DNA from: Candidatus Poribacteria bacterium
GTDB taxonomy: Bacteria; Poribacteria; WGA-4E; PCPOR2b
Direction of reading: 5' to 3'
NCBI GenBank assembly: GCA_965208325.1
Contig: OZ242326.1
Location: 854,725-918,724, forward strand
DNA: 64,000 nucleotides
Part shown: positions 15,109 through 64,000 of the stretch, in pieces
Numbering within the stretch: the first letter of the stretch is position 1
How the letters are laid out: every line of letters starts with the position of its first letter
Program-made: the position numbers and the translations under genes
The notes under the pieces: generated by a model
What the model saw: only the letters and a program-made list of their open reading frames with translations
The model's database searches: none
Told to the model about the DNA's origin: nothing

Positions 15109-15124
15109 CTACTCCAAGCGTAAG

Positions 15125-19800: not shown

Positions 19801-20204
19801 TCAATGATCGCCAATCCCGCACGAACCGCACGCTGGGCGTTGTCCTCGTGGGCATGGGGGTAACCGAAGTAGACTAGCAGCCCGTCACCGAAATATCGGG
19901 CGATATGCCCCTCAAAGCGCCTGATGGCTTTAGCACAAACCGCTTGGTAGTCGCCGAGGACATCGCGTAACTCTTCAGGGTCGAGTCTTTCGGAGAGTGA
20001 GGTTGAGCCAGCCAGATCGCAAAACATCACTGTCAACTGGCGGCGGTCCGCTTCAGGAATTTCACGAGGGTTAGAGGCGGGTTTGGCGGACGTTTCGGCA
20101 GGCGGCGCAGGTGCCGCGCGAGAATTGAGTTTCGCGCCGCAATTCATGCAGAATTGGGCTTCTTCCGGATTGGTATGTTCACAAATACGACAACGCATTT
20201 GCAC
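16869..20204 (-). CDS. class III adenylate/guanylate cyclase fused to STAND AAA+ ATPase and TPR/sensor domain, with N-terminal zinc ribbon
   Basis: Zinc ribbon 'CRICEHTNPEEAQFCMNCGAKL', cyclase motif 'LTVMFCDLAGSTSL...RIGIHTGLVVAGDMG', P-loop 'VLLNGEPGIGKSRM', long C-terminal helical/TPR region. 1111 aa. Confidence 0.8.
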   Translation of the reverse strand: MQMRCRICEHTNPEEAQFCMNCGAKLNSRAAPAPPAETSAKPASNPREIPEADRRQLTVMFCDLAGSTSLSERLDPEELRDVLGDYQAVCAKAIRRFEGHIARYFGDGLLVYFGYPHAHEDNAQRAVRAGLAIIEGMENLNARLQQENELRLEVRIGIHTGLVVAGDMGKGGELELMAIVGETPNIAGRLQELAEPNTVLVSAATYRLIAGFFECQALGARTLKGISYPIRVYQVIASEARNRIDVAATTGLTPLVGREQVVGLLLERWEQSVEGAGQVVLLNGEPGIGKSRMVQMLKEHVKSRTSSEKRPNDISDAWWENSPIIECRCSPYHQNSALYPIIDMFQRAVLGFERGDSPQKKLSKLTDFLAFSKLSVEENLPLFASFLSIPYDDGRYPPQFLTPQQQRQKTLEALLEIFLGRANRQPVLLVVEDLHWADPSTLELLDLIVDRGSTPNLLTLLTFRPDFSPPWLSCPYVTPITLNRLTRKQVAIMVEHVTKSKLLPSEVMKQIVSKTDGVPLFVEELTKMVLESGLLQERDGGYELTQPLLSLAIPTTLQDSLTARLDQLGTAKELAQLGAVMGSQFSDEVLGAVSPLDDKTLHKELSRLVDAGLLGYQQHNQSGFYFFKHPLIREAAYHSLLKSARGQYHRQIAQVLAEKFPEVAETQPGVLAHHYAEASLDNDALVYWQRAGQRAIERSANVEAIRHVSRGLELLNALPDSPAKSQHELKLQTTLGPALIATRGYAASEVVDAYTRARELCQELGESPQLFPVLFGLWLAHLVRAELQAARELGEQLLKLAEQTEDRALLLEAYRALGATLCYLGDLVASEEHLEHGIKLYDSQEHRSRTFFHYLADARLTCLSYSGAVLWVLGYPDQAMKRIHEVLGLAKSIDHPFSMAVALYFAGMVHQCRREVETAEAQAEAVKKISTEQGFTLWASAGTFGEGWAQSEQGMETAGIAQMQQGLADWRATGAEILRPYFQALLAESFLKAGKPKEGHYVLNDALAAVSDSDERLFEAELYRIKGELLLLEGDAVSDAEVCLRRAFEIARRQNAKSLELRAAVSLSRLWQTQGRQEEARTMLSQVYGWFTEGFDTADLKLAKALLNELS

Positions 20205-34351: not shown

Positions 34352-37237
34352 TTGGCAATGAGGAAATCGGTCACACCCGTCCCCAATCCCCAGCAACAGA
34401 AGGCGATTCGGACAACAGAAGGGCCGCTGCTCATTATTGCTGGTCCTGGATCTGGAAAGACCTTTACGCTTGTTGAGCGTATCAATCTCTTAATTTCGCA
34501 AAAGGGAATTCCGCCGGAATCGCTCTTCGTCGCAACTTTTACTGAAAAAGCCGCGGCCGAACTGATCAGTCGAATCTCACTAAAATTGGATTCCGCCAAA
34601 ATCACCGCCAATCTGAACGAGATGTACATTGGCACCTTCCACTCCATCTGTCTTCGATTTCTTGAGGAACACCGTAGATTTACCCGCCTGGCGCGCAACT
34701 TCACCTTATTAGATCAATTCGATCAGCAGTATTTTCTTTATCAGCGCTTGTCTGACTATCAGGCGATTGAGGGAAGTGAGCATATTTTGGATAATCCAAG
34801 AGCTACATGGTGGGGTAAGGCGGAAAATCTTATGAAATGGGTGAACAAGGTGAGCGAGGAGGCGCTTGCCCCGGAAGATTTGCTTGATGCCGACGAGCCT
34901 GAAGTTCAAGCGCTTGGACGCTGTTATCAACAGTATCAGGCACATCTCGAAGCCGAAAACTGCCTTGATTTTTCCACGATTCAAGTTGAGGCGTTGCGTC
35001 TGCTCGACCAATACCCGGAGGTACTTGACGAGATTCGCACTAAGATTCAGTATTTGATGATCGATGAGTTTCAGGACACCAACACCGTTCAAGAAATCAT
35101 CCTGTTCAAACTTGCCGAACCGAACTACAATCTCTGCGTTGTAGGTGACGATGACCAAGGACTTTACCGATTTCGGGGCGCGACGATACGTAACATTCTC
35201 CAATTCCCGCAGCGGTTCCCGCCGGGAGATTGCCAGCAAGTCAAACTCACGACCAACTACCGATCGCACCCGGATGTCATCGGTTTTTACAACGATTGGA
35301 TGGATAGCCTTGATTGGTCCGAGGACGGCAAAACTTTCCGCTATGAGAAAACAATTGTTGAAAACTCGGAACGAGAATTCACGGAGGTGCCGGCCGTGCT
35401 GAAGGTCTCAGGTGAATTAGACTCTGAGAACTGGCACGAGGAAGTCCTTGCGTTCCTTCGCCACCTAAAAGGCAACGGTTCATTGACGGATTGGAATCAG
35501 GTCGCATTCCTTTTTCGATCGGTGCGGAATGAGAAAGTCGTTGCACTCGCAGGCGCGTTGGAGGAAAACGGAATTCCCGTCTATTCCCCGCGATCTAATC
35601 TGTTCTTCGACCGGGCAGAAATTCGCCTCATGATCGGCGCGTTAATTTTCCTCTTCCCCCAATTTGAAAATGTTCGGAAGTGGAATAAAGACGCTTCGCT
35701 TGATATCTGGAACTATTACGATGACGACTGTTTTCGGGATTTTGCTGACGAACTCCGCAAGCCAGACAATAAGTCTATGTTGGCGTGGTGCAGAAGGCGA
35801 GCAAAAGCGCATCTCCACCTGATAGAGTCGACAGACTATGCCTTCTCTGGGCTGTTCTACGAATTGTTGCAGTTTCCACTATTCAGTCAATACCTTGGCG
35901 AAGCTACGCAAGGCGGAGCAATAGACACCCGTCCTGCCCGAAACTTGGCAATTTTATCCCAACTCCTCAGCAAGTATGAGTATCTGCATCACATCAACGT
36001 CTTAACGCCTGATTATCTGAACACGAATCTACGCAGGTTGTTCAATCGTTATTTTCGATTCCTTAAAGAGGGTGGGATTGAAGAATTCGAGGATGCGTCT
36101 GATTATGCGCCAACAGGCTGCGTCTCCTTCATGACGATTCATCAGTCTAAAGGGTTGGAATTTCCGGTTGTATTAGTAGGCTCAATGGAAGCCAGACCTT
36201 ACAAGCAACACACGGACCTTGATGCTGTGCTCCAGCGGAATTACTATAGAAAGCCGCCGTTTGAACCATTGGAGAATACCAAAAGCTATGACTTCTGGCG
36301 ACTTTTTTACACGGCATTTTCCCGAGCACAAAATCTACTAATTCTCACCTGTCAGGAACGAAAGGGGCGGTGGCCTGCTCCATCTGGATATCTCAGCGAT
36401 TCCTACGCTCAAACCTGCGCATGGCGGGACCCCGCATTTCAATCACAAAACCTCACACTTGAAACAATCAGGGAAGTATCTCTAAAGCATGAGTATTCAT
36501 TCACGTCCCATATCACCCTATATGAGAACTGCGCGCGGCAATACAAATTCTACCGCGACCTCCAGTTTGCCCCAATTCGGCGGAACCCAATCCTCTTCGG
36601 GGTCGTGGTACATCAGACTATTGAGGACATCCACAAAGCCGTTCTACGAGGCGAAGAAAACAGTGTCACTGATGAACAAATTTCGCGCTGGTTCAACGCC
36701 AACTATACTCACCTGTCTCGTCAAGAACGCCTTTATTTAAGCGCGGGCGGCCAAAATGCCGCCTTGGAACACGTCCTGAGATATGCTCACCGTGAGCGCA
36801 GAACATGGGATCGCCTTCGCGAAACAGAGGTCAAGGTTTCCGTTGTGAAGGACACCTACTTTTTAACCGGACATGTGGACTTAATCCGCGGCGAAGACGA
36901 GTCAATGGAAATTGTGGATTTTAAGTCGGAACGTAAACCTGACCTATTTGGCGAACGCGAGACGTTAGACCGCTACCGGCGTCAACTCGAAGTCTATGCC
37001 CACATTGTAGAAGGACGCACCGGGCACAAGATTAGTAGAATGCACCTCTACTACACAGGAGAGGACAATAGTAATCCTTATGTCAGTTTTGACAAGAATC
37101 CGCGCTCAATTAATCGCACGATGGCAGCCTTTGACGATGTCGTTGAGCGTATCGAAGCAAAAAATTTCGAGATATCGGGACGTCCGGAGAAACTGTGCAA
37201 GAATTGTGACATGAAGGCATATTGTGATGCGATATAG
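34352..37237 (+). CDS. UvrD/PcrA-like SF1 helicase fused to C-terminal Cas4/AddB-like PD-(D/E)xK nuclease with Fe-S Cys cluster
   Basis: Helicase motifs 'QQQKAIRTTEGPLLIIAGPGSGKTF' (Q/I), 'VGDDDQGLYRFRGA', 'TTNYRS', 'TIHQSKGLEFPVVLV'. C-terminal nuclease with 'YENCARQYKF', 'VDLIRGEDESMEIVDFKSER', 'QLEVYAHIV' and terminal 'CKNCDMKAYCD' (four Cys). Confidence 0.7.
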   Translation: MAMRKSVTPVPNPQQQKAIRTTEGPLLIIAGPGSGKTFTLVERINLLISQKGIPPESLFVATFTEKAAAELISRISLKLDSAKITANLNEMYIGTFHSICLRFLEEHRRFTRLARNFTLLDQFDQQYFLYQRLSDYQAIEGSEHILDNPRATWWGKAENLMKWVNKVSEEALAPEDLLDADEPEVQALGRCYQQYQAHLEAENCLDFSTIQVEALRLLDQYPEVLDEIRTKIQYLMIDEFQDTNTVQEIILFKLAEPNYNLCVVGDDDQGLYRFRGATIRNILQFPQRFPPGDCQQVKLTTNYRSHPDVIGFYNDWMDSLDWSEDGKTFRYEKTIVENSEREFTEVPAVLKVSGELDSENWHEEVLAFLRHLKGNGSLTDWNQVAFLFRSVRNEKVVALAGALEENGIPVYSPRSNLFFDRAEIRLMIGALIFLFPQFENVRKWNKDASLDIWNYYDDDCFRDFADELRKPDNKSMLAWCRRRAKAHLHLIESTDYAFSGLFYELLQFPLFSQYLGEATQGGAIDTRPARNLAILSQLLSKYEYLHHINVLTPDYLNTNLRRLFNRYFRFLKEGGIEEFEDASDYAPTGCVSFMTIHQSKGLEFPVVLVGSMEARPYKQHTDLDAVLQRNYYRKPPFEPLENTKSYDFWRLFYTAFSRAQNLLILTCQERKGRWPAPSGYLSDSYAQTCAWRDPAFQSQNLTLETIREVSLKHEYSFTSHITLYENCARQYKFYRDLQFAPIRRNPILFGVVVHQTIEDIHKAVLRGEENSVTDEQISRWFNANYTHLSRQERLYLSAGGQNAALEHVLRYAHRERRTWDRLRETEVKVSVVKDTYFLTGHVDLIRGEDESMEIVDFKSERKPDLFGERETLDRYRRQLEVYAHIVEGRTGHKISRMHLYYTGEDNSNPYVSFDKNPRSINRTMAAFDDVVERIEAKNFEISGRPEKLCKNCDMKAYCDAI

Positions 37238-37277
37238 CAAGAGATTCAAATCGACGCAAGACGCAAGGAGAAGATTC

Positions 37278-39194
37278 ATGGAAACACAATCCCATCTCAA
37301 AATTTTAGAACCTATTAATTCTGTTGAATCATACGAATTTGAGCCTATTCAGGGTTACCCCATGCTCAACTGGAAAGGTAAACGCCCTTTCCGATCCACA
37401 CAATACTATCCAGCCCAACTTAAAGAGACGTATGGTGAGGAAGTAGAGGGTTGGCAAAACAAAATATACTGGGGCGATAACTTGCAGGTAATGAGCCATT
37501 TACTTAAAACCTTTCGGGGCAGGATAAACTTGATTTACATTGATCCCCCGTTTGATTCAAAGGCAGACTACAAGAAGCAAATAGAACTTAAGGGAAAGAA
37601 AGTTGAGAACGATAAAAGTGCATTTGAAGAGAAACAATACACTGACATTTGGACGAATGATGAGTATTTACAATTCATGTATGAGCGATTAATCTTGATG
37701 AAAGAATTGTTGGCAGATGATGGGACGATATATGTTCATTCTGACTGGCGAATGAATAGTTACCTTCAATTGGTTTTAAATGAGGTGTTTGGGAAGAGTA
37801 ATTTTCTTAACTTGATAACATGGCGACGGCAAATAGTCCGCGGGATGAAAAAATACGCACGATTCATGCCATTCAGTTCGGATTACATTTATCTCTATGC
37901 AAAAGACAAAAGCAAAGCGATTTGGAACAAAATCGAAAAAGTTAATGCTATCTCATTGAAAAAGGCCGAACAAAAATATAAGAAAGATGATAAAGGATTC
38001 TTCCGAACTTCCGACCGCGGGACATACTCGGACGAGAGCATCATTCAACTCTATAAGGAAGGACGAATTCATGTCACGCACGGTGGAAAATTCCAGATAA
38101 AGGAGGGCAAGGTGTCGGTATCAGCCGGCAAAATTGGCATCAAATATTACCGCGAAACAGTTGGTGATAAAGTCCTTGAAAAAACGGTTTTTGATAATCT
38201 ATGGGATGATATATCTGGATTGGGTATTACTCCCCACGAATATCTTGATTACCCAACCCAAAAACCCGAAGCACTGCTCGAACGTATAATCAAAGCCTCG
38301 TCCAATCCCACCGACATCGTCTTGGACTGCTTCATGGGCAGCGGCACGACGCAAGCGGTCGCTATGAAACTTGGCCGTCGCTTCATTGGGGCAGACATCA
38401 ACCTCGGTGCCGTGGAAACTGCGACAAAGCGTCTCCTGATTGTTGCAGCATCGCTAAAGGAAAAAACGGCACAAAGGCGAATTGAAGAAACCCTAATCCA
38501 CTTTTCGGGATTTGAAGTGTATAACGTCAACCACTATGATGTATTCCGAAATCCCGTTGAGGCGAAAGACCTGTTGATAGAGGCATTAGAGATACAACCT
38601 CTGCCAAACGGCGGTATTTTCGATGGCGAAAAGGACGGGCGCATGGTGAAAATCATGCCAATCAATCGAATTTCAACCCGAGCAGACCTCAACGAACTAA
38701 TCGCGGGATTTAACTACCAAACATTTGAAAGGCGTCAGGAAGAAAATCCAGATGCTCCGGTCGAAAAGCTATTACTGGTCTGCATGGGCCACGAACCTGG
38801 CCTCGCCGCAGCACTGCAAAACGAAGTACCTCACAAACTTGACATAGAAATAATGGATGTTTTGCGCGATAAATCCCGACTAGAGTTCAAGCGTGAATCC
38901 GAAGCGAAGATTGTTCGTAACAACGGATACCTAATCATAGAGCAATTCTACCCGATGAACCTTCTTCAAAAGTTGAGCCTGATAGAGGAAAACGTCGCTG
39001 ATTGGCGCGAACTGGTGGAATCTGTAAAGGTTGACTTCAACTACGACGGCGGGGTGATGAACCCATTAGTGGTCGATCTGGCGAAAGAACATCAACTAGT
39101 TGAGGGCACTTACCCCATTCCAGAAGACGCGGGCACAATCCGAGTTAAAATCACCGATTTGCTGTCAGAATCTTTGGAAAAGACAGTGGAATAG
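37278..39194 (+). CDS. mod: Type III restriction-modification DNA methyltransferase (Mod), beta-class N6-adenine/N4-cytosine MTase
   Basis: 'IYWGDNLQVMSHLL...INLIYIDPPF' (motif IV DPPF) N-terminal, AdoMet motif I 'DCFMGSGTTQAVAMKLGRRFIGADIN' C-terminal (beta order). Shine-Dalgarno 'AAGGAG' 9 nt upstream of the ATG at 37278. The ORF's nominal start at 37224 overlaps the helicase gene. Confidence 0.75.
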   Translation: METQSHLKILEPINSVESYEFEPIQGYPMLNWKGKRPFRSTQYYPAQLKETYGEEVEGWQNKIYWGDNLQVMSHLLKTFRGRINLIYIDPPFDSKADYKKQIELKGKKVENDKSAFEEKQYTDIWTNDEYLQFMYERLILMKELLADDGTIYVHSDWRMNSYLQLVLNEVFGKSNFLNLITWRRQIVRGMKKYARFMPFSSDYIYLYAKDKSKAIWNKIEKVNAISLKKAEQKYKKDDKGFFRTSDRGTYSDESIIQLYKEGRIHVTHGGKFQIKEGKVSVSAGKIGIKYYRETVGDKVLEKTVFDNLWDDISGLGITPHEYLDYPTQKPEALLERIIKASSNPTDIVLDCFMGSGTTQAVAMKLGRRFIGADINLGAVETATKRLLIVAASLKEKTAQRRIEETLIHFSGFEVYNVNHYDVFRNPVEAKDLLIEALEIQPLPNGGIFDGEKDGRMVKIMPINRISTRADLNELIAGFNYQTFERRQEENPDAPVEKLLLVCMGHEPGLAAALQNEVPHKLDIEIMDVLRDKSRLEFKRESEAKIVRNNGYLIIEQFYPMNLLQKLSLIEENVADWRELVESVKVDFNYDGGVMNPLVVDLAKEHQLVEGTYPIPEDAGTIRVKITDLLSESLEKTVE

Positions 39195-39212
39195 CGACTT
39201 ATAGGGGAAAAA

Positions 39213-41816
39213 ATGGCACGAATTGCGCGAACACAGATTAATCTCGATTTCGCCTTCTTCACCTACCTACGCATCTTTTATACTGAGAACCGCGGGCGAA
39301 TTCGCAATCACTTTCGAGATCTATCTAAAAAATTCCTAGATTTCAACACCCCTGAATCAGGGGCGTTTTTGCGCGAACCGCAGTTTGAGGCGTTAGAGAT
39401 GTACATTTTCCTTAAGGAATATCTAGGTAACCGACACGTTCACGAGATTTTCACTGACTGGTACACAAAACAAAACGGGTTTGAAGGGCGGTCAACTCTT
39501 GGTATCGAACAGCTTGAACTGCTTGGAGAACTCAATACGACGCAATACGAGGCTGTATTCCGCTATATTAGAAAATCTGGAAATCGAAATTATGCGAATT
39601 ATATTTTTGCGCTTCCAATGGGTACGGGCAAGACGATTCTCATGGCAACCTGTATCTTCTACGAGTTTCTGCTCGCCAATAAATTTCCGAAAGATCCAAA
39701 ATATTGTCGTAATGCCCTTGTCTTCGCACCCGATCGAACGGTGTTACAGTCTCTCAAAGAGATTCAGACCTTCGACATGACAAAAGTTATACCGCATGAA
39801 TACTTCAATTTCCTTTCACGCCACATCCAATTCCACTTCCTTGAAGAAGCCGGAACTACACTCTCTACAATGGACCGCTCGCAATTCAACATTATCATCT
39901 CCAATGCGCAGAAGATAATACTCAAAAAGCAACACACTGAGAAAAGTGCCAGTGAACGCTTGTTTAAGAGCGGAGCACCGACTTACAAACCGGGAAGCGT
40001 CTACGACCAATTTTCAGGTCTCTACAATTTTGACACGCCCGAAGATGAGAACGAATTAACAACCAATCAGCGATTTCAGAAACTGACAAGGCTTGAACAA
40101 CTCGCAATCTTTGTCGACGAGGCACATCATGCGTTCGGCAGTAAACTGGCAAGGGACATGGGGCTTCAGAAGTCAAAGACCAGTCTGCGGCTTACCATTG
40201 ATGAACTTGCGGCAAGTTTGGAGCGTGCGGGAACGCGCGTCTGCGCCTGCTACAATTTCACGGGTACACCATACGTCGGGCAACAGGTCTTACCCGAAGT
40301 AGTTTACGGGTACGGGTTAAAAGAAGCAATTGACAAAGGATTCTTGAAAAAAGTTAGGCTTCATACCTACACCAATCCTAAAGACTCGGAGTTTGTGCGA
40401 CTGACGATTAAGGATTTCTGGGACAATCATCGTGGATTACGACATGAAGGGATGTTGCCGAAACTCGCACTATTTTCATCCACAATCGACGAGTTAAAGA
40501 ACGATCTTCGCCCCGCTGTTGAATCGGCGTTAAGCGAGTTTGGTGTGCCGCTCTCTAGCATCCTTGTTAATGTGGGAGATTCAAAGCTGACATCCAACGA
40601 TGAACTCCGCGAGTTTATTAACCTTGACACCCAATCATCCGAAAAACAGTTTATCTTGTTAGTCAATAAAGGAAAAGAAGGATGGAACTGCCGATCGCTG
40701 TTTGGCGTGGCACTTTACCGGAGACCGAAATCCAAAATTTTTGTTCTACAAGCCAGTATGCGATGCTTACGGCAGATTGGCGAAGACCAGCAAACTGGAC
40801 ACATTTATCTTTCCGCAGAGAATGCTCAGATTCTTGATGACGAGTTGCAGCAAAACTTCCGCGTGTCCGTCAATGAAATTCATAACTTCGGTGTTGAAAA
40901 ATTAAATTATAAGGTACGAGTTAACAAACCGCCCGTGAACGTGACGCTCAAACGCATCAGAAAGTTGCACCAGCTGGTAGAAAAGCAATCCCAGAACGGG
41001 CTGTGTTTGGAGCTCGATCAGATAGACACAGAAAAGTATCGCTTAATACACGAAGAAAGTGAAGGGCTGGCGGCTCCTCACCCGATTCTAACGGAGGACC
41101 TATCCGAATACAAGTTAAAGCGAGATTTCAGTCAGTTGACGCTGTGTGCGGAAATTTCTCGCTACCTAAATCGATCTCCGCTGAAAATTGAGGAAATGCT
41201 GACGAATACAGAAGAAGGGATGCAAAGGATTCTGTCGAATGTCAATGAGTTTAATGAACTACTTTACGACTGGATAATTCCACGAATTTTTAAGGCATTA
41301 TATGATTTGCAGGAATTTGAAAATCACGAATCAGAAGAAATTGAATTGGTTAAGGAGCCCGAGGAGGGGTACTACACTGTTCGGGCGACGCCTAACCTTG
41401 TTTTTACAGATAACAACACTGAAGTAATACAGCACCGGCGAAAGAGTTTTCACTTGGACACCTACGCTTTTGACTCCAACCCTGAAAAGGCTTTATTTTG
41501 GTCACTGCTGCGGGCTGGAAAAGTTAAAAAAGTGTATTTCACAGGAATGCTGACGCATGGGCAATCAGATTTTTACATCCAATACATTGACCCAGAATCG
41601 CATGCAGTCAGGCGATATTATCCCGATTTCCTCATGCGGAAGGATGACGACTCATGGGTCATCGTCGAAGTAAAGGGTGACAATATGGTTGACGACCAGA
41701 TAGTTCAGGCAAAAGCTGCGGCTACCTATCAGCGAGCAAATGCAAGTCGCATGACATACAAAATCATTAAGGGCAGCGATGCTCAGGCGGGAAGATATAG
41801 TTCATTGTTGGAATAG
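39213..41816 (+). CDS. res: Type III restriction enzyme Res subunit (SF2 DEAH helicase plus C-terminal PD-(D/E)xK endonuclease)
   Basis: Walker A 'FALPMGTGKTILMA', DEAH 'IFVDEAHHAF', C-terminal nuclease 'YYPDFLMRKDDDSWVIVEVKGD'. 867 aa, immediately downstream of Mod. Confidence 0.7.
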   Translation: MARIARTQINLDFAFFTYLRIFYTENRGRIRNHFRDLSKKFLDFNTPESGAFLREPQFEALEMYIFLKEYLGNRHVHEIFTDWYTKQNGFEGRSTLGIEQLELLGELNTTQYEAVFRYIRKSGNRNYANYIFALPMGTGKTILMATCIFYEFLLANKFPKDPKYCRNALVFAPDRTVLQSLKEIQTFDMTKVIPHEYFNFLSRHIQFHFLEEAGTTLSTMDRSQFNIIISNAQKIILKKQHTEKSASERLFKSGAPTYKPGSVYDQFSGLYNFDTPEDENELTTNQRFQKLTRLEQLAIFVDEAHHAFGSKLARDMGLQKSKTSLRLTIDELAASLERAGTRVCACYNFTGTPYVGQQVLPEVVYGYGLKEAIDKGFLKKVRLHTYTNPKDSEFVRLTIKDFWDNHRGLRHEGMLPKLALFSSTIDELKNDLRPAVESALSEFGVPLSSILVNVGDSKLTSNDELREFINLDTQSSEKQFILLVNKGKEGWNCRSLFGVALYRRPKSKIFVLQASMRCLRQIGEDQQTGHIYLSAENAQILDDELQQNFRVSVNEIHNFGVEKLNYKVRVNKPPVNVTLKRIRKLHQLVEKQSQNGLCLELDQIDTEKYRLIHEESEGLAAPHPILTEDLSEYKLKRDFSQLTLCAEISRYLNRSPLKIEEMLTNTEEGMQRILSNVNEFNELLYDWIIPRIFKALYDLQEFENHESEEIELVKEPEEGYYTVRATPNLVFTDNNTEVIQHRRKSFHLDTYAFDSNPEKALFWSLLRAGKVKKVYFTGMLTHGQSDFYIQYIDPESHAVRRYYPDFLMRKDDDSWVIVEVKGDNMVDDQIVQAKAAATYQRANASRMTYKIIKGSDAQAGRYSSLLE

Positions 41817-53945: not shown

Positions 53946-55778
53946 TTGCTGCGTTTTGCGAAAACACACAACGGCGTTGCCGTAAGATTTTTATCACAGC
54001 ATGGACCATCATTCAATTTCAGTCCGAACAATGGTAGGAAACCGCTGCTTCCAATTTTTCTCACAATTCAATTGACCGGTTTGATTGCTGCCGTTTTCGC
54101 GGCGGAGATATACGGGGGGCAAAAGGAGGAATCTATGATGCGAAGTGAACAACTAGTGGGTACCCCCAACACCCTGGATTTGGTAGAGCGGGCGCGGTAT
54201 GCGATTAACGCGATGACGCAAAGCACCAATCCGGAAGCGGAGTACGCGGTCTACTTCACCGGGGTGCTTCACCGCAATCCGCCGACGCTATTGAGGGAAA
54301 TCCCGCTGTACGGAAAATTCATGGAAGGGTTGGCTTTAATGCGCATCATGACGAGCGGCGAATTCGATACACGCGCATCTACGCAACCCGATGATTTTAA
54401 CCGGCATGTGGACCGCGTCTGGCGGGAAGCCTTTCTGCGCAAGCTAAAGAAACAGGAACTTACATTAGTTGGCGCCGAAGGCGGACGGCAGCTCGCTTGG
54501 TTGGCGATCCAATATCAACAGACCCAAGACTCAATGTGGAAAGAACTCGGCGAAACGGTGATTCAGCGGGCGCTAAAAACGACGGTCCATCAAAACGGCT
54601 ACTGCTATTTCCCGACTGACGCGGAAGGCACAATGCCGACGAGTTGGGAGGCGACCTACCAAGGGTGGACGCTCCAGGGCGTAACCCAATTTTATATGGC
54701 GACCGGCTCTGAAGCGGCGCTGGAACTGGCGGGCAAACTCGCCCGCTACTTGAAAGATCACTCCGGCATGTTTGATGCCGACGGACGCTTTCTCGCACGC
54801 CACGACGTTGATGTTCCGCTCGACCCGCCGGCTACACTTGGACCTGCGCTGCATTTCCACCACAATGGCAACACGATGGAAGCGCTCTCGGAGTATGCGT
54901 GGGCAAGCGGCGAATCGGAATTTGGAGAATTCGCCAAGAAATGCTACGAATACGCCCGTTCACTCCCCGACTCATCGCCGCTTATCGGCTTTTTCCAAGA
55001 GTACATCGACGATTGGCCCGATAACCGCGGTGTCATAGACTGCGAAACCTGCTGTGTCGTTGACATGATGTTGACTGCGCTCTGGATGACGAAGGCGGGC
55101 GTGGAGGATTATTGGGACGATATCGACCGATATTTGCGAAACCAGTTCGCCGAGATGCAGATGACCTCCGGAGATTGGTTAACCCGGATGACAGAAGCAC
55201 TGCCGTATCGGCCGCCGGGCGAGGGCGAAATTGCCATGGGGTCGCCGGACCGCTGGGTCGGCACCTTCGCCGGTTGGGCGACTGCCAATGACTTCTTCGC
55301 CATCGGCGCAGGTCCCGGCATCATGCACTGCTGCACCGGCAACGGGTCACGGGCGCTTTACTACCTTTGGGAGAATATGCTTGAGTTCAGCGGCGGAGAG
55401 TTACGGCTCAATCTACTGCTCAACCGGAATTCTCCGTGGGTCGAGGTCAGCAGCCGCATCCCGTATGAAGGCAAGGTTGAGTTGAAGGTCAAGGCGGGGT
55501 GTGAAAATATTTCGGTTCGCGCGCCCGAATGGGTGGAAGGCTCAAACGGCGCAATGTCGTGCCGCGTTAACGGCGCCTCCCGAAACTTCAGTTGGAAGGG
55601 CCGCTGTGTACACATCGGCAAAGCCGCACCCGGTGATAAAGTTGAAATTACATTTCCCATATCGAATCGGACGGTGGAAGAAACGGTAGGCGGTGTGCCG
55701 TACACGCTTGTAATCCGGGGCAATAACGTGATTTCCATCTCTCCGCCGGGGAAGCATTACCCTTTTTATAACCGATAA
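53946..55778 (+). CDS. DUF1680 / GH127-like six-hairpin glycoside hydrolase family protein, membrane-anchored (paralog 1)
   Basis: N-terminal anchor 'LLPIFLTIQLTGLIAAVFAA'. 'DCETCCVVD' (E-x-C, 55041-55055) and 'HCCTGNG' (55327-55345) match the Glu/Cys/Cys-Cys zinc/catalytic arrangement described for GH127 beta-L-arabinofuranosidase. C-terminal beta-sandwich. Confidence 0.45.
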   Translation: MLRFAKTHNGVAVRFLSQHGPSFNFSPNNGRKPLLPIFLTIQLTGLIAAVFAAEIYGGQKEESMMRSEQLVGTPNTLDLVERARYAINAMTQSTNPEAEYAVYFTGVLHRNPPTLLREIPLYGKFMEGLALMRIMTSGEFDTRASTQPDDFNRHVDRVWREAFLRKLKKQELTLVGAEGGRQLAWLAIQYQQTQDSMWKELGETVIQRALKTTVHQNGYCYFPTDAEGTMPTSWEATYQGWTLQGVTQFYMATGSEAALELAGKLARYLKDHSGMFDADGRFLARHDVDVPLDPPATLGPALHFHHNGNTMEALSEYAWASGESEFGEFAKKCYEYARSLPDSSPLIGFFQEYIDDWPDNRGVIDCETCCVVDMMLTALWMTKAGVEDYWDDIDRYLRNQFAEMQMTSGDWLTRMTEALPYRPPGEGEIAMGSPDRWVGTFAGWATANDFFAIGAGPGIMHCCTGNGSRALYYLWENMLEFSGGELRLNLLLNRNSPWVEVSSRIPYEGKVELKVKAGCENISVRAPEWVEGSNGAMSCRVNGASRNFSWKGRCVHIGKAAPGDKVEITFPISNRTVEETVGGVPYTLVIRGNNVISISPPGKHYPFYNR

Positions 55779-55829: not shown

Positions 55830-57731
55830 TTGATTCGTGGTAGTTTGATATGCGCCGCACAATTCAACCTACCTACTAATGTCAATGACGATGATATGAC
55901 ATATCCCAACGATTCACTAATCGGTCTTATAGAAAAAGACCCATCAACAATGAGACGGCTATGCATTTTCAATCCCTCGAAACGTTGGAAACTGAGACTC
56001 CCATTATTTCGCGCGATTCTGCCGATCGGGTTAATTGCCGCCGTTTTCGTTTCGGGGGGCTACGGAAAGCTCAAGGAGGAACCAACGATGCAAAATGAAC
56101 AATTAGCAGAGGCACCCAACACGCTGGATTTGGTAGAGCGGGCTGGGTATGCGATTAACGCGATGACGCGAAGCACCAATCCGGAAGCGGAGTACGCGGT
56201 CTACTTCACCGGCGTGCTCCACCGCAACCCGCCGACCCTATCAGGGCAAATTCCACTGTACGGAAAATTCATGGAAGGGACGGCGTTGATGCGCATTATG
56301 ACGAGCGGCGAATTCAACACACGCCCATCTTCCCAACCCAAGGATTTCAATCGACACGTGGACCGCGTCTGGCAAGATGCGTTTGTGCGGTTACTGACTG
56401 AAAGTAAGCCGGTGCTTACGGGACCCGAAGGCGGACGGCAACTCGCATGGTTAGCCATTCAGTATCGGCGGACGAATAACGAAATGTGGAAAGAACTCGG
56501 TGAATCGGCGATTCAGCGCGCGCTTGATGCGGCAGTCCATCAAGATGGCTACTGTTATTTCCCGCACGGCGCAGAAGGGACGATGCCGACGGGCTGGGGG
56601 GCGACCTACCAAGGGTGGACGCTTCAAGGGCTCAGCCAGTTTCATATTGCGACCGGTTCGGACGTTGCACTGGAACTGGCGGGCAAACTTGCCCGCTATT
56701 TGAAGGATTACGCTGGCGTTTTTGATGCGGACGGCCGGTTTCTATCGCGCCACGGCGATTCCATTCCGCACAGCCCGCCAGCCACACTGGGACCTGCACT
56801 GCATTTCCACCACAACGGCAATGCGATGGAAGGGCTGATGGAGTACGCGTTGGCGAGCGGCGATGCGGAATATGCTGAATTCGCGAAAAAATGCTATGAA
56901 TACGCCCGTTCGCTCCCCGACTCATCGCCGCTTATCGGCTTTTTTCAGGAGTACATTGACGATTGGCCCGATAACCGCGGCGTCATTGACTGCGAAACCT
57001 GCTGTGTTGTTGACATGATGCTGACGGCGCTCTGGATGACGAAGGCGGGTGTTGGCGATTATTGGGACGACATTGACCGGTACATGCGGAACCAGTTCGC
57101 CGAGATGCAGATGACCACCGGAGATTGGCTGGAAAAAATGAATGAAGGGCTATCATATCAACCGCCGGGCGATGATGAGATTGCGATGGGTTCACCTCAG
57201 CGTTGGATCGGCACCTTCGCCGGTTGGGCGACTGCCAATGACTTCTTCGCCATCGGTGCAGGTCCAGGTATTATGCACTGCTGCACCGGCAACGGGTCAC
57301 GGGCGCTTTACTATCTCTGGGAAAATACGCTAGAATACAACGACGGAGAGTTACGGCTCAATCTGCTTCTTAACCGGCAATCTCCATGGGTGCAAGTCAG
57401 CAGCCATATCCCGTATGAAGGCAAGGTTGAGTTGAAGGTCAAGGCAGGGTGTGAAAATATTGCCGTTCGCGCGCCCGAATGGGTGGAAGGGTCGAGCGGC
57501 GTACTGTCGTGCCGCGTCAACGGCGCCGTCCGCAAAATTAGTTGGACGGACCGCTATGTGCACATCGGTGAAGCGGCGCCTGGCGACACAGTTGAACTCG
57601 CATTTCCGATATCTGAACGGACGGTCGAGGAAACAGTTGGCGGTGTTCCTTATACGCTTGTAATCAGGGGAAATAACGTGGTTTCCATCTCACCGCAGGG
57701 AAAGAATTATCCGTTTTACCACCGTAATTAA
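55830..57731 (+). CDS. DUF1680 / GH127-like protein, tandem paralog 2
   Basis: About 75% amino-acid identity to paralog 1 with identical 'DCETCCVVD' and 'HCCTGNG' motifs. Long stretches of near-identical DNA. Confidence 0.45.
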   Translation: MIRGSLICAAQFNLPTNVNDDDMTYPNDSLIGLIEKDPSTMRRLCIFNPSKRWKLRLPLFRAILPIGLIAAVFVSGGYGKLKEEPTMQNEQLAEAPNTLDLVERAGYAINAMTRSTNPEAEYAVYFTGVLHRNPPTLSGQIPLYGKFMEGTALMRIMTSGEFNTRPSSQPKDFNRHVDRVWQDAFVRLLTESKPVLTGPEGGRQLAWLAIQYRRTNNEMWKELGESAIQRALDAAVHQDGYCYFPHGAEGTMPTGWGATYQGWTLQGLSQFHIATGSDVALELAGKLARYLKDYAGVFDADGRFLSRHGDSIPHSPPATLGPALHFHHNGNAMEGLMEYALASGDAEYAEFAKKCYEYARSLPDSSPLIGFFQEYIDDWPDNRGVIDCETCCVVDMMLTALWMTKAGVGDYWDDIDRYMRNQFAEMQMTTGDWLEKMNEGLSYQPPGDDEIAMGSPQRWIGTFAGWATANDFFAIGAGPGIMHCCTGNGSRALYYLWENTLEYNDGELRLNLLLNRQSPWVQVSSHIPYEGKVELKVKAGCENIAVRAPEWVEGSSGVLSCRVNGAVRKISWTDRYVHIGEAAPGDTVELAFPISERTVEETVGGVPYTLVIRGNNVVSISPQGKNYPFYHRN

Positions 57732-58090: not shown

Positions 58091-58476
58091 CGCGTTTCTC
58101 CTCTTGAGTTAAACTTTCTTCAGTATAAAAAACGACACAGACTAGGGCGTGTTGACATTTGGCATCCCGTAGGTTGAATTGAACGGTTAAACGGCAGTCC
58201 CTATCAAGTACAATGGAATCTTTTGTAACACAATCTGTTAGATTGTGATCCGAGCCCGCAAACTAACAGTTTGTGCTACTTATATCAGATTATCCAATGG
58301 TGACAACGTTTGCGGAATCAGTAGCCTCAAAATGTCAACAGAACCTAGGGCGTGTTGACAAATTAGTCATGACAGCACAGCTTAGTAGGAACGACAATTA
58401 AACGCATTGGCAAGTCCATTGTTTGCTGTTCCCATTTTACATTGATTCACGGCGGATTGTAAAGCGGCACGTCTGT

Positions 58477-60582
58477 TCACGCATTCTGAGCATCATCATC
58501 TTCCATCTTCTTTACCAACCGGTCAATCCTTTGAAACTGCCACGTCCAGCGGACATTGTAGAGAAATTGCCTGAGGTCAAATCGATTGTCATCAGGCGAA
58601 TAGGATTCGGCATGATATGAAGGCGTCAACGTTGTCATCTTATGGCGGTTGAGTGAATAGTGGTAGAAAAAATACCTGACCTTTGCAGCCACTTCCTGGC
58701 GCGAAAGATGATGCCACTCATGAACCAATTTCTCAAACATGTTTACTGGCCCGCACCGATCTATTTTGCGGAGCCTTCCGAACCGGCTAAGTTCCTGGTA
58801 GGTCAACCCCATATCCGCTTCGTCTTCCTGCGTATACGACTCGGTGATGGGTTCTAGCTCCGCTGTCGGCGGCGCGTCCAAAACATCGTTAAGAATCGTA
58901 TACCCCAGATTTTCCGCCGCCCACCGCAAAAACCGGCGGAGATCCTCCTTGCTTATTCCCCCAATCGGATTTATGTCAGCGCTGCTGCAGTCGTATTTTG
59001 TTACGTAGCCGCGCAGGCTCTCATCCACATTCGCCGTTCCCAGCACCAGCAATACCCCGCGTTTGCCGCGCACCCACGGCAACAGTTGCGCCAATAGGTA
59101 GGAAAATACCATGCGAAGGCGTGCTTGGATGTTCTGCAGAGCGGTGTTTTCCGATGCCGTGCCGCCGTCCACCTTGAACCGCGGAGTTTTCTGGGTCAGC
59201 TTTATAAAGAGGGAGAGCATTGCAGCGACGACGGAATCAATATTGACATTCAGGTGGTACGCCCCAATCTGATCCGCCAACTCTTTTGCACGCGTGCGTG
59301 TCACCTTTGAGCTGTTCACAGTCGCCAGATAGCATGTGTGGAGAATTCGGTTGGCGAATTCACGCGCATCGGTCGGCAGATAGCCGCCCGCCTCGTCTTC
59401 TCCGGCGATGCGGCGAGCGTCTCGGATGACCGCACGATTCCCCGCCTTTGCTTCTTTGGCTACCATTTGGCACATCGATCCGACCAAGGTAGCAACCGTG
59501 GAACTATCCGCTCCCCCCGAGATTGGCAGGAAATACCCCGCTGCACCGGAGCGCCTCAGATAATCCCATAGCCAGCATGCCGGGCCGTAAGCAATTTCGC
59601 CTTCCGGTGTGTGATAGCGAATCTCTATCGGCGGGGACGGCGCAAGTCCATAATCCTCGGCGGTAAGGTCGAAATCCACAGCAACTCTGGGAACCAATTC
59701 CGATTGGCTCGCCTGCACGCCGCGGCTAGTTTTCGCCCCGCGATACGAGCGGACATCTTCCAAATCGAGCGTGGCGGTTAACACTTCGATGTCGTTTAGC
59801 GAAAACTGTGTTCCTTGCGCCACAATCTCGCCGTTAACGGCTATCATGGCACAGCCGTCGAAGTAAAGACGTCCCCCATCGCAGCCTTGCTGGTTTGCAT
59901 AGAGGTAGATCCCGCCGGCTTTTGACGTGGCGTTGCGGATGAGATTTACGCGCTGGTCGAGTTTACGAAGTTCGTGATGCGATCCCGATGCGTTGGTGAT
60001 AATCTCAACCCCGTTCAAGCTGAGGTAGATATGCGGGCTATTCGGTGCAAAAAGCCCCTCACAAGTTTCCGCCGCAAGCACAGTGTCGCGCGTCGCGACG
60101 GCGGCATCGCCGAACGGGACGGTATCCTGACCCGTGATTTCCCGAATCATGCGCGGCAGATAGAAGTCTTCTAGCGTCTTGGAATGCTGCCACGCTGCGA
60201 ACCACCGCATTTCACGGTAATTTCCGTCCGCCGCGAGAATCGGCTTCGGTATAATCAGGACAATTTTTCGATCCAGCACGAGAATGCGGCAGTTGTACCG
60301 CACATTTTTGTGCATCACCGGCATCCCGATATCGCAAAGCATGCTTGTTGTCAAATCCCCACTGAGTATCTCGGCGAGGCATTCCCACGAATGAAGAAAA
60401 GTATCCTGCTCCAAAAAATGATCTTCGCATCCGTAACCGGAAATCTCTAATTCGGGACCGACGCGATACCGTGCTCCCTTTTCTTTTGCAATCTGAGTCG
60501 AGGCAACAATTCGCTCAAGATTTCCTTCGAAGTCCATCGCCCATTGATTGAGATTGCAGGTTGCGAGGGTTACTAATTTCAT
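58477..60582 (-). CDS. nadE: glutamine-dependent NAD(+) synthetase (CN-hydrolase plus NAD synthetase domains)
   Basis: N-terminal nitrilase domain ('[24 protein letters not shown]', catalytic Cys 'GCDGG' region), PP-loop '[16 protein letters not shown]'. 701 aa. Confidence 0.85.
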
Positions 60583-61182
60583 AGTTTTTCCGTTTCGTGC
60601 CAGAGTTACAGGTCCGGTCAGAAGCCAAATGCCCTACCGCCGAGATTCCTTGTTCACTCGTACCTTTATTGCATCGTGCAAGATACGGGGGTCTGGTGTT
60701 TTATGCGAGGTTGGCGGCGTAAAACGCCACACATTTTATCATAACATCGGTTTGCATGCGAAAGATAACGGTTCGCCGCAGCGTTACTGAGGTGCTGGAA
60801 GACCGGCAAAACAGCGGCCCGCACCGTGAATTTTGGAGACAAAATTTCACAGTTTTCACAGTAAACTGAAAAAACGGGAAAACGAAATATGCCCACAAAC
60901 ATAGGTGAGGCGCGGGTTCAGCCGACTGTTAAGAATATGTTACTGTGAAATTTTCATAGTTTTAGTGGTTAGGTGGTTGAACGTCCAAAAGCTCGTATTA
61001 GGGCAATTCTTTGCCCGTTATTACACATAAAATCTGGCAGACCGAGAAAGTGAATAGCCTGCCGGACGCTCAATTGATTGCGCGACTACGAACCTCTACC
61101 ATGGTGCGCTCAAACCGTCAACCGTTTTCCACCAGCATTCCGCGAGTAGGACGACGGAGGATTGTAGTATAAGTTGGTTTGA

Positions 61183-61686
61183 TTACTTTACGGATTCATT
61201 GAAAATTGGATCCGTTGTTCGGAATCTGAGGTTGTCTTTTGCTTTGATTTCATCGATTAAGTTTCTAACGTCTGGTTGCGTCAAAATTCCACATTCCCAA
61301 AGCGCCCGTAAGGTCTCGGCTAGGTTGACGCAGTCTATTTTGATTCTCAGACAGTGATGTTTGACTCGCCGTTCGTTGCTAACAAAGACGGCGCCTAATC
61401 GTTTGCAAATTGCCATTGTCTCGCGTTCCCCCAAACCGAGTGTCCAAGGCAAAGTTTCCATGAACTGTTGGTCTGCATCTGTCGGTTGATACGTCACGAT
61501 TCGTCCTTGCGCGTGTAATGCCATGACATTTTCTACAAAATTGAACCCCTTAACGGCGCCCGTTTGTAGTTCGCGCTCCACGGCGGAAGAAATGTTGAGT
61601 AAATCCGCATTGAAGACGGTGAACAACAGCGGCAAACGGTGAACTTTAGCAAAAATCGAAAGCACATCCGTGTCAATGAAAACCAC
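61183..61686 (-). CDS. PIN-like (DUF3368-type) toxin
   Basis: 'MVFIDTDVLSIFAKV' PIN acidic start, and a downstream Asp ('QPTDADQQF'). Stop/start coupled with the upstream UPF0175 gene. Confidence 0.55.
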   Translation of the reverse strand: MVFIDTDVLSIFAKVHRLPLLFTVFNADLLNISSAVERELQTGAVKGFNFVENVMALHAQGRIVTYQPTDADQQFMETLPWTLGLGERETMAICKRLGAVFVSNERRVKHHCLRIKIDCVNLAETLRALWECGILTQPDVRNLIDEIKAKDNLRFRTTDPIFNESVK

Positions 61687-61688
61687 GG

Positions 61689-62039
61689 TTAAGCCCCTTC
61701 GGAATTGTCGTTTGGCTTGTGAACTTGCTTGACGACCGAAACTCCCGCCTGCAATGCGTCCACCGATTCGATTTCAATTGTCTTTGGGATACCCTTCGCG
61801 CTCAAAGCCACGTCAAACTCAAAACGGTGGATTCCAGCCAATTCCGCTGCCCTCGCAAGCGTCACTTCACCGTGTTGATAAAGCAAAATTGCGGCATCAA
61901 GACGAGATTCTTTTTTCGTAGTGACTAATTTTTCAAGTGCATCGGTCATCAACGCATGCGAATCGGCATAAAGTCCCACATCAATCAGGGCGTTCACCTC
62001 TTCTTCAAGGGTAGGTGAGTGAATTTCAATCTGGAGCAT
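61689..62039 (-). CDS. UPF0175-family antitoxin-like protein
   Basis: 'AILLYQHGEVTLARAAELAGIHRFEF', the UPF0175 HTH signature. 116 aa. Lies 2 nt upstream of the PIN gene. Confidence 0.55.
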   Translation of the reverse strand: MLQIEIHSPTLEEEVNALIDVGLYADSHALMTDALEKLVTTKKESRLDAAILLYQHGEVTLARAAELAGIHRFEFDVALSAKGIPKTIEIESVDALQAGVSVVKQVHKPNDNSEGA

Positions 62040-62322
62040 GGCTTTCTTTCCTTTCGATATCGAAGTTAATTACGAAAAGTCAACCTCATCGGCGTCGAGC
62101 TTGCGGAGAAAAAGATCTTGAGATTGGTGGAGGATTCGAATTTTCAAAATCATTTTCCCAATGCGAAAAGATTGGTTCGATAAATTTAGGTACGCAAGGA
62201 TTATGGACAGGGTTATACCGGTACCGCAGCGGGCGAACCATCCACTCCCATGGCGTCAACTGCTTCATCTAGCGAAATGGTTAGGTTTGCATAATGAGGC
62301 ATAATCTGAATCTCATTCACGT

Positions 62323-63276
62323 TTAATTTTGCAATTCATGCAGCAAATCTACCCAACTCAGGCGTTCTCGTGCGGGGTCTACCAGCGGTTTAAGCCGTTC
62401 GCACCACCCCTTGACGGTATTGTAAAACGCCGGGTCTGTCTCAATTCGCTCTAGGAGTTTCGCCAATGCGTACGTATCGCCTACCGGAAAGTAGCCCGGA
62501 TAATCCTCGCCGAGTAGACCGATTGATCCGGATATTTGCGACGAAATGACGGGCACCGAACAGGCGATCGCCTCGCCAACCACATTCGCGCCGCCCTCCA
62601 TCTGTGAAGTCAACACGAGCGCACGGCAGCGGGCTAACCGGCGAAGTGCCTTCCACCGAGGAATTTCCCCTAACCAACGATAGCGCGGATTGGATGCTTC
62701 CTCTGCTCTTGCGGTTATTTCCGTATCTTCGCTTAAGGCGCCGCCGATATGCACCACCTGGACTCGCGAGTGGGCGCGCAGGGAGCGGGAAGCTATCGCC
62801 GTCCGGAATGGGTCCTTCACGGGACGCAAATGTCCAATCACGCACACCTCAAAGACATCCTTTTTCGGAGAAAAGGCGCGTGGCGGTTTCTTTACGGATT
62901 GGTAAATGACGCTTGCCTTGCCTCGCAAGTGTACCGGAAGTTCATCAATTCCCATCGCTTGCAGCACGATGAACCTCGACGCTATCTCCAGCGATTCTTG
63001 AGCGTACGAATCGATATGGATATCGCTGTACAGATCTGTTCCGGTCAACGCCAGGATAAGTGGTAGGTCGGGGTATTTTCCCCGAAAGCGTTTAATGGAA
63101 ACATAACTGCGGCGTGCGTGAAGCGCGACCATCAAATCGCACCGCTCGCCGCCATACGTTTGCTGAACCAGGACACGGTGACCAAGTTCGCGCAATATGC
63201 GAGCCCAGCGCAGCGCTGTTACACGGTTTCCTTTGCGGGAGCGCGGCGGCGCCGGGGTAATCATACAAATTTTCAT
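62323..63276 (-). CDS. small GT-B-fold glycosyltransferase (SenB-like?)
   Basis: 'MKICMITPAPPRSRKGNRVTALRWARILRELGHRV' N-terminal GT-B Rossmann, C-terminal 'EGGANVVGEAIACSVPVISSQISG' (EX7E-like nucleotide-sugar region). 317 aa. Confidence 0.5.
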   Translation of the reverse strand: MKICMITPAPPRSRKGNRVTALRWARILRELGHRVLVQQTYGGERCDLMVALHARRSYVSIKRFRGKYPDLPLILALTGTDLYSDIHIDSYAQESLEIASRFIVLQAMGIDELPVHLRGKASVIYQSVKKPPRAFSPKKDVFEVCVIGHLRPVKDPFRTAIASRSLRAHSRVQVVHIGGALSEDTEITARAEEASNPRYRWLGEIPRWKALRRLARCRALVLTSQMEGGANVVGEAIACSVPVISSQISGSIGLLGEDYPGYFPVGDTYALAKLLERIETDPAFYNTVKGWCERLKPLVDPARERLSWVDLLHELQN

Positions 63277-63361
63277 GGTGTTCTCTTCAAGAGTTCAAAG
63301 TGAAAACGGCTGAAATTTCTTTTTTATATGCGCGTATCATGGCGTTAACGGTGTCTGCGCA

Positions 63362-64000
63362 TCAGTCGCACGCACAGGTGCGAAATCCAGCCAGCACATC
63401 CCGCCGATCCGGCGTGTAGAAATTGCGCCAGGTGTTGCGCAGCATCCGGGAACGCGTTGTCCAGCACCCGCCGCGCAGCACTTTTCGAGATCCAAACCAG
63501 GGGGCGGAATACTCCTTGTACAGGTCAACCTCAAAACCCGGATAAGGGTGAAAACTGCTGCTCGTCCATTCCCATACATTGCCAATCATTTGGCGGCAGC
63601 CGAAGCCGCTGTCCCCCTCCGGTAATGCGTTTACACTGACGCAACCCATCTGATTCCAATCCAAGTTAGCCCGCTCGGGCGTATGCGGTTCGCTGCCCCA
63701 AGGGAAGCGCCGCTTCGCCGACGAAAGCCCCTCACCGCCAAGGCGCGGTTCTGCGGCGGCGGCAACCTCCCACTCAACCTCTGTTGGGAGCCGGCGCTTC
63801 GCCCAACGGCAGTACGCTTCAACCTCATACCAGTTGACATGGATTACGGGAAGGCGGGGTTCGAGCGGCACCCATTCGCCAAAATGCCGCCGCAACCATT
63901 CGCCATCCGTGTCGCAACGCCAGTAGACGGGATGTTGCGCCGCCTCCGAGTTACGCCAATCCCATCCGTCCGAACTCCAGAGGTCTCTTCGGCGGTAACC
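63362..64000 (-). CDS. EgtB/FGE-sulfatase-family sulfoxide synthase, C-terminal part (gene continues beyond window end)
   Basis: 'VIHVNWYEVEAYCRWAKRRLPTEVEWE', 'GNVWEWTSS', 'RVLRGGCWTTRSRMLRNTWRNFYTPDRRDVLAGFRTCACD', the EgtB/OvoA/FGE C-terminal signature. The frame is open to the window edge. Confidence 0.65.
   Translation of the reverse strand, partial: GYRRRDLWSSDGWDWRNSEAAQHPVYWRCDTDGEWLRRHFGEWVPLEPRLPVIHVNWYEVEAYCRWAKRRLPTEVEWEVAAAAEPRLGGEGLSSAKRRFPWGSEPHTPERANLDWNQMGCVSVNALPEGDSGFGCRQMIGNVWEWTSSSFHPYPGFEVDLYKEYSAPWFGSRKVLRGGCWTTRSRMLRNTWRNFYTPDRRDVLAGFRTCACD

Follow-up and report, generated by a model that had tools for sequence, protein, structure and literature searches.

At its end, the 64,000-nucleotide stretch of DNA analysed here (the window) very probably carries a senA-senB operon of two genes for the synthesis of selenoneine, a selenium antioxidant; the genome is close to metagenome-assembled genomes of 'Candidatus Poribacteria'. 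The locus is a known pathway in minimal two-gene form: the selenosugar synthase gene senB is complete, and the EgtB-like gene senA runs out of the window at its 5′ end. Both enzyme activities are predicted by analogy with characterized enzymes. An initial annotation, made from the letters only, had described an EgtB/OvoA C-terminal signature in the partial gene at the window edge and a co-directional 317-residue glycosyltransferase downstream of it, and had suggested a sen-type rather than an egt-type pair. Each of these points was borne out, the order being right when the genes are read on the minus strand. In a literature search, no paper was found that links the selenoneine pathway with Poribacteria; the locus would extend the reach of the pathway to a Poribacteria-like lineage.

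Assignment of senB and senA

The glycosyltransferase is SenB, as judged by a curated hidden Markov model (HMM), PDB sequences, fold and residues defined by mutagenesis. The NCBIfam equivalog model TIGR04348, 'selenoneine biosynthesis selenosugar synthase SenB' (310 positions, cutoff 300 bits), matched at 398.5 bits and was covered from position 1 to 309; this is the profile search that the initial annotation had proposed for a SenB-type enzyme. The product also matched Pfam Glycos_transf_1 (E 5.7e-15), and the runner-up glycosyltransferase family reached 92.5 bits only. In a PDB sequence search, SenB entries were the sole matches at E ≤1e-5 (E 1.3e-61). A model was computed with AlphaFold from 42 homologues (predicted local distance difference test 92.9, predicted template modelling (TM) score 0.87) and compared with known structures using Foldseek. 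Ranks 1-15 were all SenB crystal structures (8RZ3, 8JJN, 8JJT, 8JJQ, 8K5U and 8FBX; TM 0.84-0.92), and the best non-SenB GT4 enzyme was BshA (TM 0.77). Homologues of about 70% identity to the window protein are already named 'SenB' in public records.

Substrate-binding residues have been mapped in the V. paradoxus enzyme, VpSenB (PMC10891094). The selenophosphate (SeP) pocket was defined by mutagenesis as N20, H58, R61, T83, T85 and R155, and the sugar-donor residues are N20, T23, Q131, V157, E231 and E239. K158 is the lysine that cleaves the Se-P bond, and R155, V157 and K158 together act in binding the SeP/UDP phosphate and in cleaving the Se-P bond. VpSenB N20, T23, H58, R61, T83, T85 and D86 correspond to window N17, T20, H53, R56, T78, T80 and D81, and Q131, R155, V157, K158, E231 and E239 to Q126, R151, V153, K154, E227 and E235. 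Residues R151-K154 of the R-P-V-K loop were invariant across the 91 distinct SenB homologues surveyed. The sole difference among the mapped critical residues was Asn231 (EGGANV) for H235 (EGGAHV). Selenosugar synthesis from selenophosphate and a UDP-sugar is the predicted activity of the window SenB.

The senA fragment lacks about 225 N-terminal codons, which lie beyond the window end, and includes RNFYTPDRRDVLAGFR at about 63380-63427. It matched Pfam FGE-sulfatase (E 1.7e-37) and TIGR04373, 'EgtB-related enzyme signature domain' (94.9 bits, cutoff 71), the latter spanning the motif that the initial annotation had quoted. The Pfam E-values of both genes are well outside what chance would give. 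The NCBIfam SenA model NF041186 (cutoff 420 bits) gave the top score of all families, 247.4 bits over model positions 224-382, ahead of EgtB (TIGR03440, cutoff 360) at 199.7 and OvoA at 107.7; at 212 residues the fragment is too short for the whole-protein SenA cutoff. The full-length orthologue in L001, a 'Candidatus Poribacteria' chromosome, has 437 residues and is 92% identical to the fragment over the overlap. It scored 516.1 bits with the SenA model and 345.9, below cutoff, with EgtB.

At the substrate-defining positions, within KEYSAPWF and WRNFYTP, the window SenA carries Y, N and F. In H. utahensis OvsA, M401/Q430/A431 give histidine as substrate and selenylation at C5, and Y/N/F give hercynine and C2 (bioRxiv 10.1101/2024.04.10.588772). 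Every SenA is reported to have Phe or Tyr where EgtB has D416 (bioRxiv 10.1101/2022.04.13.486033), and the window residue is Tyr. Over five positions the window reads YYNFY, as did 97/113 homologues, with YYNFF in a further 11; among the references, V. paradoxus SenA reads YYNFF, OvsA YMQAY and EgtB YYNWD. The SenA-versus-EgtB phylogeny suggested in the initial annotation was approached with a neighbour-joining (distance) tree of the C-terminal domain, a rough tree of one domain, in which the window fell inside a 106-member SenA clade without OvsA. Full-length orthologues in L001 and in L122, an ENA scaffold, retain features that would be encoded past position 64000 here: the three-His triad, the selenosugar contacts N63/E68/R120 of VpSenA and the change of EgtB R87 to His, which together with Phe/Tyr at D416 marks a pocket for the selenosugar instead of the thiol. 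By these sequence comparisons, the fragment is SenA-type, not EgtB or OvsA.

An ordinary ergothioneine EgtB beside an unrelated cell-envelope GT4 enzyme would account for the EgtB score of the fragment and for the match of its neighbour to the generic Glycos_transf_1 model. This is extremely improbable given the difference between 398.5 bits for SenB and at most 92.5 for other glycosyltransferase families, and the orthologue falls below the EgtB cutoff yet exceeds that for SenA. The γ-Glu-Cys-binding D416 is replaced by Tyr, and R87 by His in orthologues. Adjacency of senA and senB was seen, moreover, in 97 related loci. M. thermoresistibile EgtB (4X8B), of the EgtB-EgtD pathway, has the DinB plus FGE-like fold, the catalytic Tyr and the hercynine-binding Tyr and Asn in common with the window enzyme; it differs at the thiol-binding D416 and R87, and the partner in the window is SenB, not EgtD.

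In the V. paradoxus sen cluster (SenA, SenB, SenC; Kayrouz et al. 2022, bioRxiv 10.1101/2022.04.13.486033; 8K5I, 8JJN, 8FBX), the pathway-specific enzymes SenA and SenB are likewise encoded side by side and in one direction. The SenB proteins share their catalytic and SeP/UDP-sugar residues and their fold (TM 0.9), and the SenA proteins agree in their catalytic Tyr, in Asn-Phe of the hercynine pocket and in having an aromatic residue at the EgtB D416 position. Protein identity is about 38-40%, and the window locus differs in having no senC (selD). In the window, senB lies 85 nt downstream of senA, and no promoter-like or terminator-like site was found in the spacer. The two genes are presumably co-transcribed.

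The window SenA (63365-64000) also has an extra segment of about 54 residues (EPRLGGEG...GCRQMI), which is present in EgtB and OvsA and absent from V. paradoxus SenA (8K5I). The 382-position NCBIfam SenA model aligned just 159 positions (224-382) to the fragment, and so appears to be without this segment too.

Several observations weigh against a working selenoneine operon. The N-terminal half of SenA, with its iron ligands, lies past the window and is known from orthologues only. The ratio of non-synonymous to synonymous substitution rates (dN/dS) between the window and L001 is 0.17 for senA and 0.33 for senB, the latter exceeding the 0.07-0.18 of other lineages. No selD, egtD or selenium transporter gene was found in the 64-kb window, nor within 10 kb in the nearest relatives, which bears on the completeness of the pathway. 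In the PDB search, the senA fragment scored higher with H. utahensis OvsA (8UX5, 193.7 bits; 8U41, 183.8 bits) than with SenA of V. paradoxus (148 bits); the EgtB score was 144 bits.

This PDB ranking prompted an OvsA reading, in which the enzyme would selenylate C5 of free histidine and EgtD would not be required. No egtD lies nearby, as such a pair would allow. The H. utahensis ovs system (OvsA/OvsM with SenB/SenC; bioRxiv 10.1101/2024.04.10.588772; 8U41/8U42) likewise combines a selenosugar-dependent non-heme-iron selenoxide synthase with SenB, and OvsA has the highest overall similarity to the window SenA among solved structures. The top match 8UX5 is, however, itself the OvsA-YNF variant, with Y...NF where the wild type has M...QA, and outranks wild-type OvsA for this reason. 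The specificity positions M401, Q430 and A431 are Y, N and F in the window, a hercynine and C2 signature rather than a histidine and C5 one, and the tree sets the window apart from OvsA; the reading was rejected on this motif and the tree. No OvsM-like N-π-methyltransferase was found in the window by HMM scans, or among the genes flanking senAB in the closest relatives, and EgtD is present in related Poribacteria clusters. An ovoselenol-type pair is thus very unlikely. Both OvsA-type chemistry and an EgtB beside an unrelated glycosyltransferase are contradicted by the tests in this analysis.

Selenophosphate and hercynine supply

The initial annotation had expected a selenophosphate synthetase gene just beyond the window. 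Neither tblastn of the whole window, with proteobacterial and Poribacteria queries, nor HMM scans of open reading frames (ORFs) of at least 200 residues in the first 54 kb revealed a homologue of SelD or EgtD; betaine-type and selenate-type transporter homologues were likewise absent from the 64 kb. The region past 64000 was approached through synteny. L122 is collinear with window positions 58431-64000 as a single block of 94.3% nucleotide identity, and collinearity to the window end was also found for L123, a short contig (93.8%), L001 (92-93.6%), and L002 and L003 (78-85%). No protein identical to the window SenB was on record, and a metagenome scan with the SenA fragment returned relatives at ≤75% identity only.

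Upstream of the 437-residue senA, these five relatives have a gap of about 210-540 nt and then a divergent metallophosphoesterase gene of 686-709 residues, which is split into two shorter ORFs in L003. Beyond it lie a small ORF, pyrK, pyrD, pyrB, a flippase gene and purS; the L123 contig stops after pyrK and one more gene. No selD or egtD was found within 10 kb of senAB in any of the five. A selD just past position 64000 is therefore most probably not there, and the expectation of the initial annotation was probably wrong. Among the best 120 protein-database matches to a Poribacteria SelD, none was recognized as coming from the L001-L003 or L122 genomes.

Linkage was counted in 36 related senA+senB loci whose flanks extend 5 kb or more to each side. 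selD occurred within 5 kb in 11 of these and egtD in six, so that the two-gene senAB form without selD (25/36) was the majority. With selD linked in a minority of loci, its absence takes nothing away from the sen assignment, and a missing upstream SelD, which the initial annotation had named as counter-evidence, is not a valid objection. The window locus falls outside the three-gene definition of a sen biosynthetic gene cluster used by Kayrouz et al. (an egtB homologue, tigr04348 and selD within 5 kb). The pathway-specific core would often be just senA-senB, with selD and egtD unlinked, and genome mining that asks for all three within 5 kb would overlook the majority of these loci (25/36 here).

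Fuller islands occur in four related Poribacteria loci (L005, L009, L015 and L042), whose SenA and SenB are orthologous to those of the window (65-72% and 64-76% identity, respectively) and carry the same motifs. Their order is senA-senC-senB, with a selenocysteine (Sec)-containing SenC/SelD in between. The flanks contain EgtD (TIGR03438, 374.7 bits, cutoff 290.9) and, as a possible transporter of hercynine, ergothioneine or selenoneine, a betaine-type fusion of binding domain and permease plus a ProV-like ATPase. L015 and L042 also encode a binding protein that matched TIGR04553, 'putative selenate ABC transporter', at 361.5 bits (cutoff 250), together with PhnE/PhnC-like partners. The window locus, in contrast, has no SenC, EgtD or ATP-binding cassette (ABC) system. 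The presence of EgtD in these clusters fits a SenA that acts on hercynine.

In loci of Poribacteria, Acidobacteriota and Latescibacterota, the SenC/SelD genes have a TGA at the classical Sec position (TCG-U-AAK), followed by a canonical Sec insertion sequence (SECIS), CAGUCC-GGUC-GGACUG. SelD database proteins are cut to 290-320 residues because of this TGA.

With the V. paradoxus enzymes as model, selenophosphate would be supplied by a SelD whose gene lies at another site in the genome. SenB would join it to UDP-GlcNAc, creating the C-Se glycosidic bond, and hydrolysis of the Se-P bond via Lys154 (VpSenB K158) would release 1-seleno-β-D-GlcNAc (SeGlcNAc). SenA, with non-heme iron, O2 and the catalytic Tyr, would link the selenosugar with hercynine at C2, forming a selenoxide that would lose the sugar to give selenoneine. 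SelD, as well as hercynine through EgtD or import, would thus have to come from elsewhere.

The main rival to a selenoneine operon is an orphan or decaying pair, in which senC, egtD and transporters have been lost and senAB is non-functional or reliant on imported precursors. It would fit the presence of senA-senB only at the locus in the window, L122, L123 and L001-L003, when the fuller islands add senC, egtD and the TIGR04553 selenate-type and betaine-type ABC systems. The somewhat relaxed senB dN/dS against L001, and the replacement by Cys of a Sec codon found in the closest relatives (see below), point the same way. Both ORFs are nonetheless intact with all catalytic residues conserved, dN/dS is far below 1, and five genomes with 78-94% nucleotide identity keep the two-gene layout, as do most relatives from soil. 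Furthermore, the in-frame senB TGA of L001-L003 requires SelD-dependent Sec insertion, which would imply a selD elsewhere in those genomes. An orphan pair is accordingly judged unlikely, and a selenoneine operon with unlinked partner genes is preferred.

Probable selenocysteine, and cysteine, at SenB residue 145

Codon 145 of the window senB encodes Cys, three residues ahead of the G-H-L-R-P-V-K loop in the AlphaFold model; VpSenB has Val149 at this position. In eight related loci (L001-L004, L006, L009, L015 and L042), six labelled Poribacteria and two (L006 and L042) without a phylum label, a single in-frame TGA stands at exactly this codon of senB. Across the 91 homologues, position 145 was Cys in 74 and TGA in eight. 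The window itself does not have the Sec form, both it and L122 carrying Cys (TGC in the window).

Among TGA-bearing senB genes, dN/dS was 0.07-0.18 both 5′ and 3′ of the TGA (dS ≥0.4). This persistence of purifying selection past the TGA indicates that the distal half of senB is translated. A pseudogene or sequencing error was rejected on these values and on the sharing of the codon, without other stops, by eight assemblies. A split gene was rejected in view of the next codon, which is GTG, GTC or GTA with no conserved start, and a recoded TGA because TGA is also the ordinary senA stop in the same genomes.

A hairpin, GUCC-CGUGAA-GGAC, lies at +20 to +33 after the senB TGA, with GU at +25/26, and there is covariation between +9 and +36. 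At codons 151-155, the third position was invariant in 7/7 distinct Sec forms analysed (L042 being identical to L009 over this stretch), whereas neighbouring conserved codons varied by 0.6-1.95 bits and codons 151-155 in 65 Cys forms by 0.8-1.8 bits. The 17-nt block CGUCCCGUGAAGGACCC, invariant in all TGA-containing orthologues, is intact in the window hairpin. In L009, L015 and L042, the neighbouring SelD has its own TGA at the Sec position and the canonical SECIS.

Selection past the TGA, the conserved hairpin and the Sec-containing SelD alongside in three loci indicate that SenB is probably a selenoprotein in the TGA-bearing lineages. Cys in the window and L122, Ser (TCA) in L005 and Cys in L007 seem to have arisen as separate replacements. 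No Rfam bacterial SECIS matched around the L001 senB TGA, and an Rfam scan of the whole window found nothing. No tRNA, tRNA-Sec included, was detected in the window with ARAGORN, and a search for other TGA-interrupted ORFs there as a sign of Sec use gave shadow ORFs only. In a literature search, no report of a Sec-containing SenB was found.

We give an even chance to the fuller proposal that SenB is an undescribed selenoprotein family, that codon 145 was ancestrally UGA in the Poribacteria lineage of the window, decoded through a short SECIS hairpin overlapping the codons of the catalytic R-P-V-K loop, and that the window represents a recent Sec-to-Cys conversion which kept the hairpin. If so, Cys/Sec145 would have a redox or selenium-handling role that the Val149 enzyme of V. 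paradoxus does not display; one possibility is that the selenolate product or selenophosphate is held as an Se-S or Se-Se adduct. Confirmation would mean that the maker of the first C-Se bond in small-molecule selenium metabolism is itself selenium-dependent in some bacteria, and that residue 145 is a conserved position which could not be flagged from V. paradoxus crystallography.

No cysteines of this SenB clade other than Cys46 (63139-63141) and Cys145 are well conserved, and Cys46 is kept in all Sec forms. Their losses were weakly linked (6/9 versus 16/91, a comparison confounded by phylogeny). The two may form a redox pair, although in the AlphaFold model they belong to strands in opposite Rossmann domains and are remote from the cleft.

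Feature coordinates and other genes in the window

Table 1. Positions of the sen genes and of their diagnostic codons in the window and in related loci (L-numbers).
Feature	Position	Strand	Basis or remark
senB, complete, 317-residue selenosugar synthase (Se-glycosyltransferase, GT-B fold)	62323-63276	minus	TIGR04348, PDB sequences, AlphaFold/Foldseek
SECIS-like hairpin UGG...GUCC-CGUGAA-GGAC-CCA, retained after the Cys145 codon	62809-62836	minus	Conserved block
R151-P-V-K154 codons of the G-H-L-R-P-V-K loop	62815-62826	minus	VpSenB R155, V157, K158; alignment to PMC10891094
Cys145 codon (TGC), first strand of the C-terminal Rossmann domain	62842-62844	minus	Alignment, AlphaFold model
senA-senB spacer, 85 nt	63277-63361	minus	Consistent with co-transcription
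senA 3′ part, 212 C-terminal codons and TGA stop, open to the window end	63362-64000	minus	NCBIfam, Pfam, L001 orthologue
Asn-Phe-Tyr codons	63416-63424	minus	At M. thermoresistibile EgtB N414-W415-D416 / OvsA Q430-A431-Y; alignments to 4X8B, 8K5I, 8U41 and motif survey
Tyr-Lys-Glu-Tyr codons	63509-63520	minus	First Tyr catalytic (M. thermoresistibile EgtB Y377 / V. paradoxus SenA Y363, PMC11237966); second the hercynine-pocket aromatic, Met401 in OvsA
senB TGA	L001, L002, L003, L006: 10433-10435; L004:1115-1117; aligned codon in L009, L015, L042		
SenC/SelD genes	L005:8922-9980, L007:8936-9994, L009:1390-2436, L015:8881-9927, L042:10714-11760 and others		
Added genes of the fuller islands	L005:1954-5269; L009:3506-6835; L015:4203-7365 and 10981-14286; L042:6041-9204 and 12830-16159		

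Downstream of senB lie a UPF0175 (116 residues) and DUF3368 (167 residues) pair (61183-62039, minus strand), nadE and a Rieske protein gene. The pair resembles a toxin-antitoxin module. It is common to L122, where it falls within the collinear block, and L123, and a GxxExxY-family gene takes its place in L001.

Further into the window, tandem paralogues at 53946-55778 and 55830-57731 (610 and 633 residues) showed weak GH127-like similarity only; there are three such copies in L001 and two each in L002, L003 and L122. Genes for a UvrD/PD-(D/E)XK helicase-nuclease, an N6/N4 DNA methylase and a ResIII helicase stand in a row at 34352-41816, and may constitute a restriction-modification or defence module. 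A 1111-residue protein (16869-20204, minus strand) matched 'TOMM system kinase/cyclase fusion' at 662.5 bits, just below the cutoff of 705.75. At 37-1227, beside Gfo/Idh/MocA-type dehydrogenases, a RuBisCO-like protein is encoded, with weak form III/RLP-type matches.

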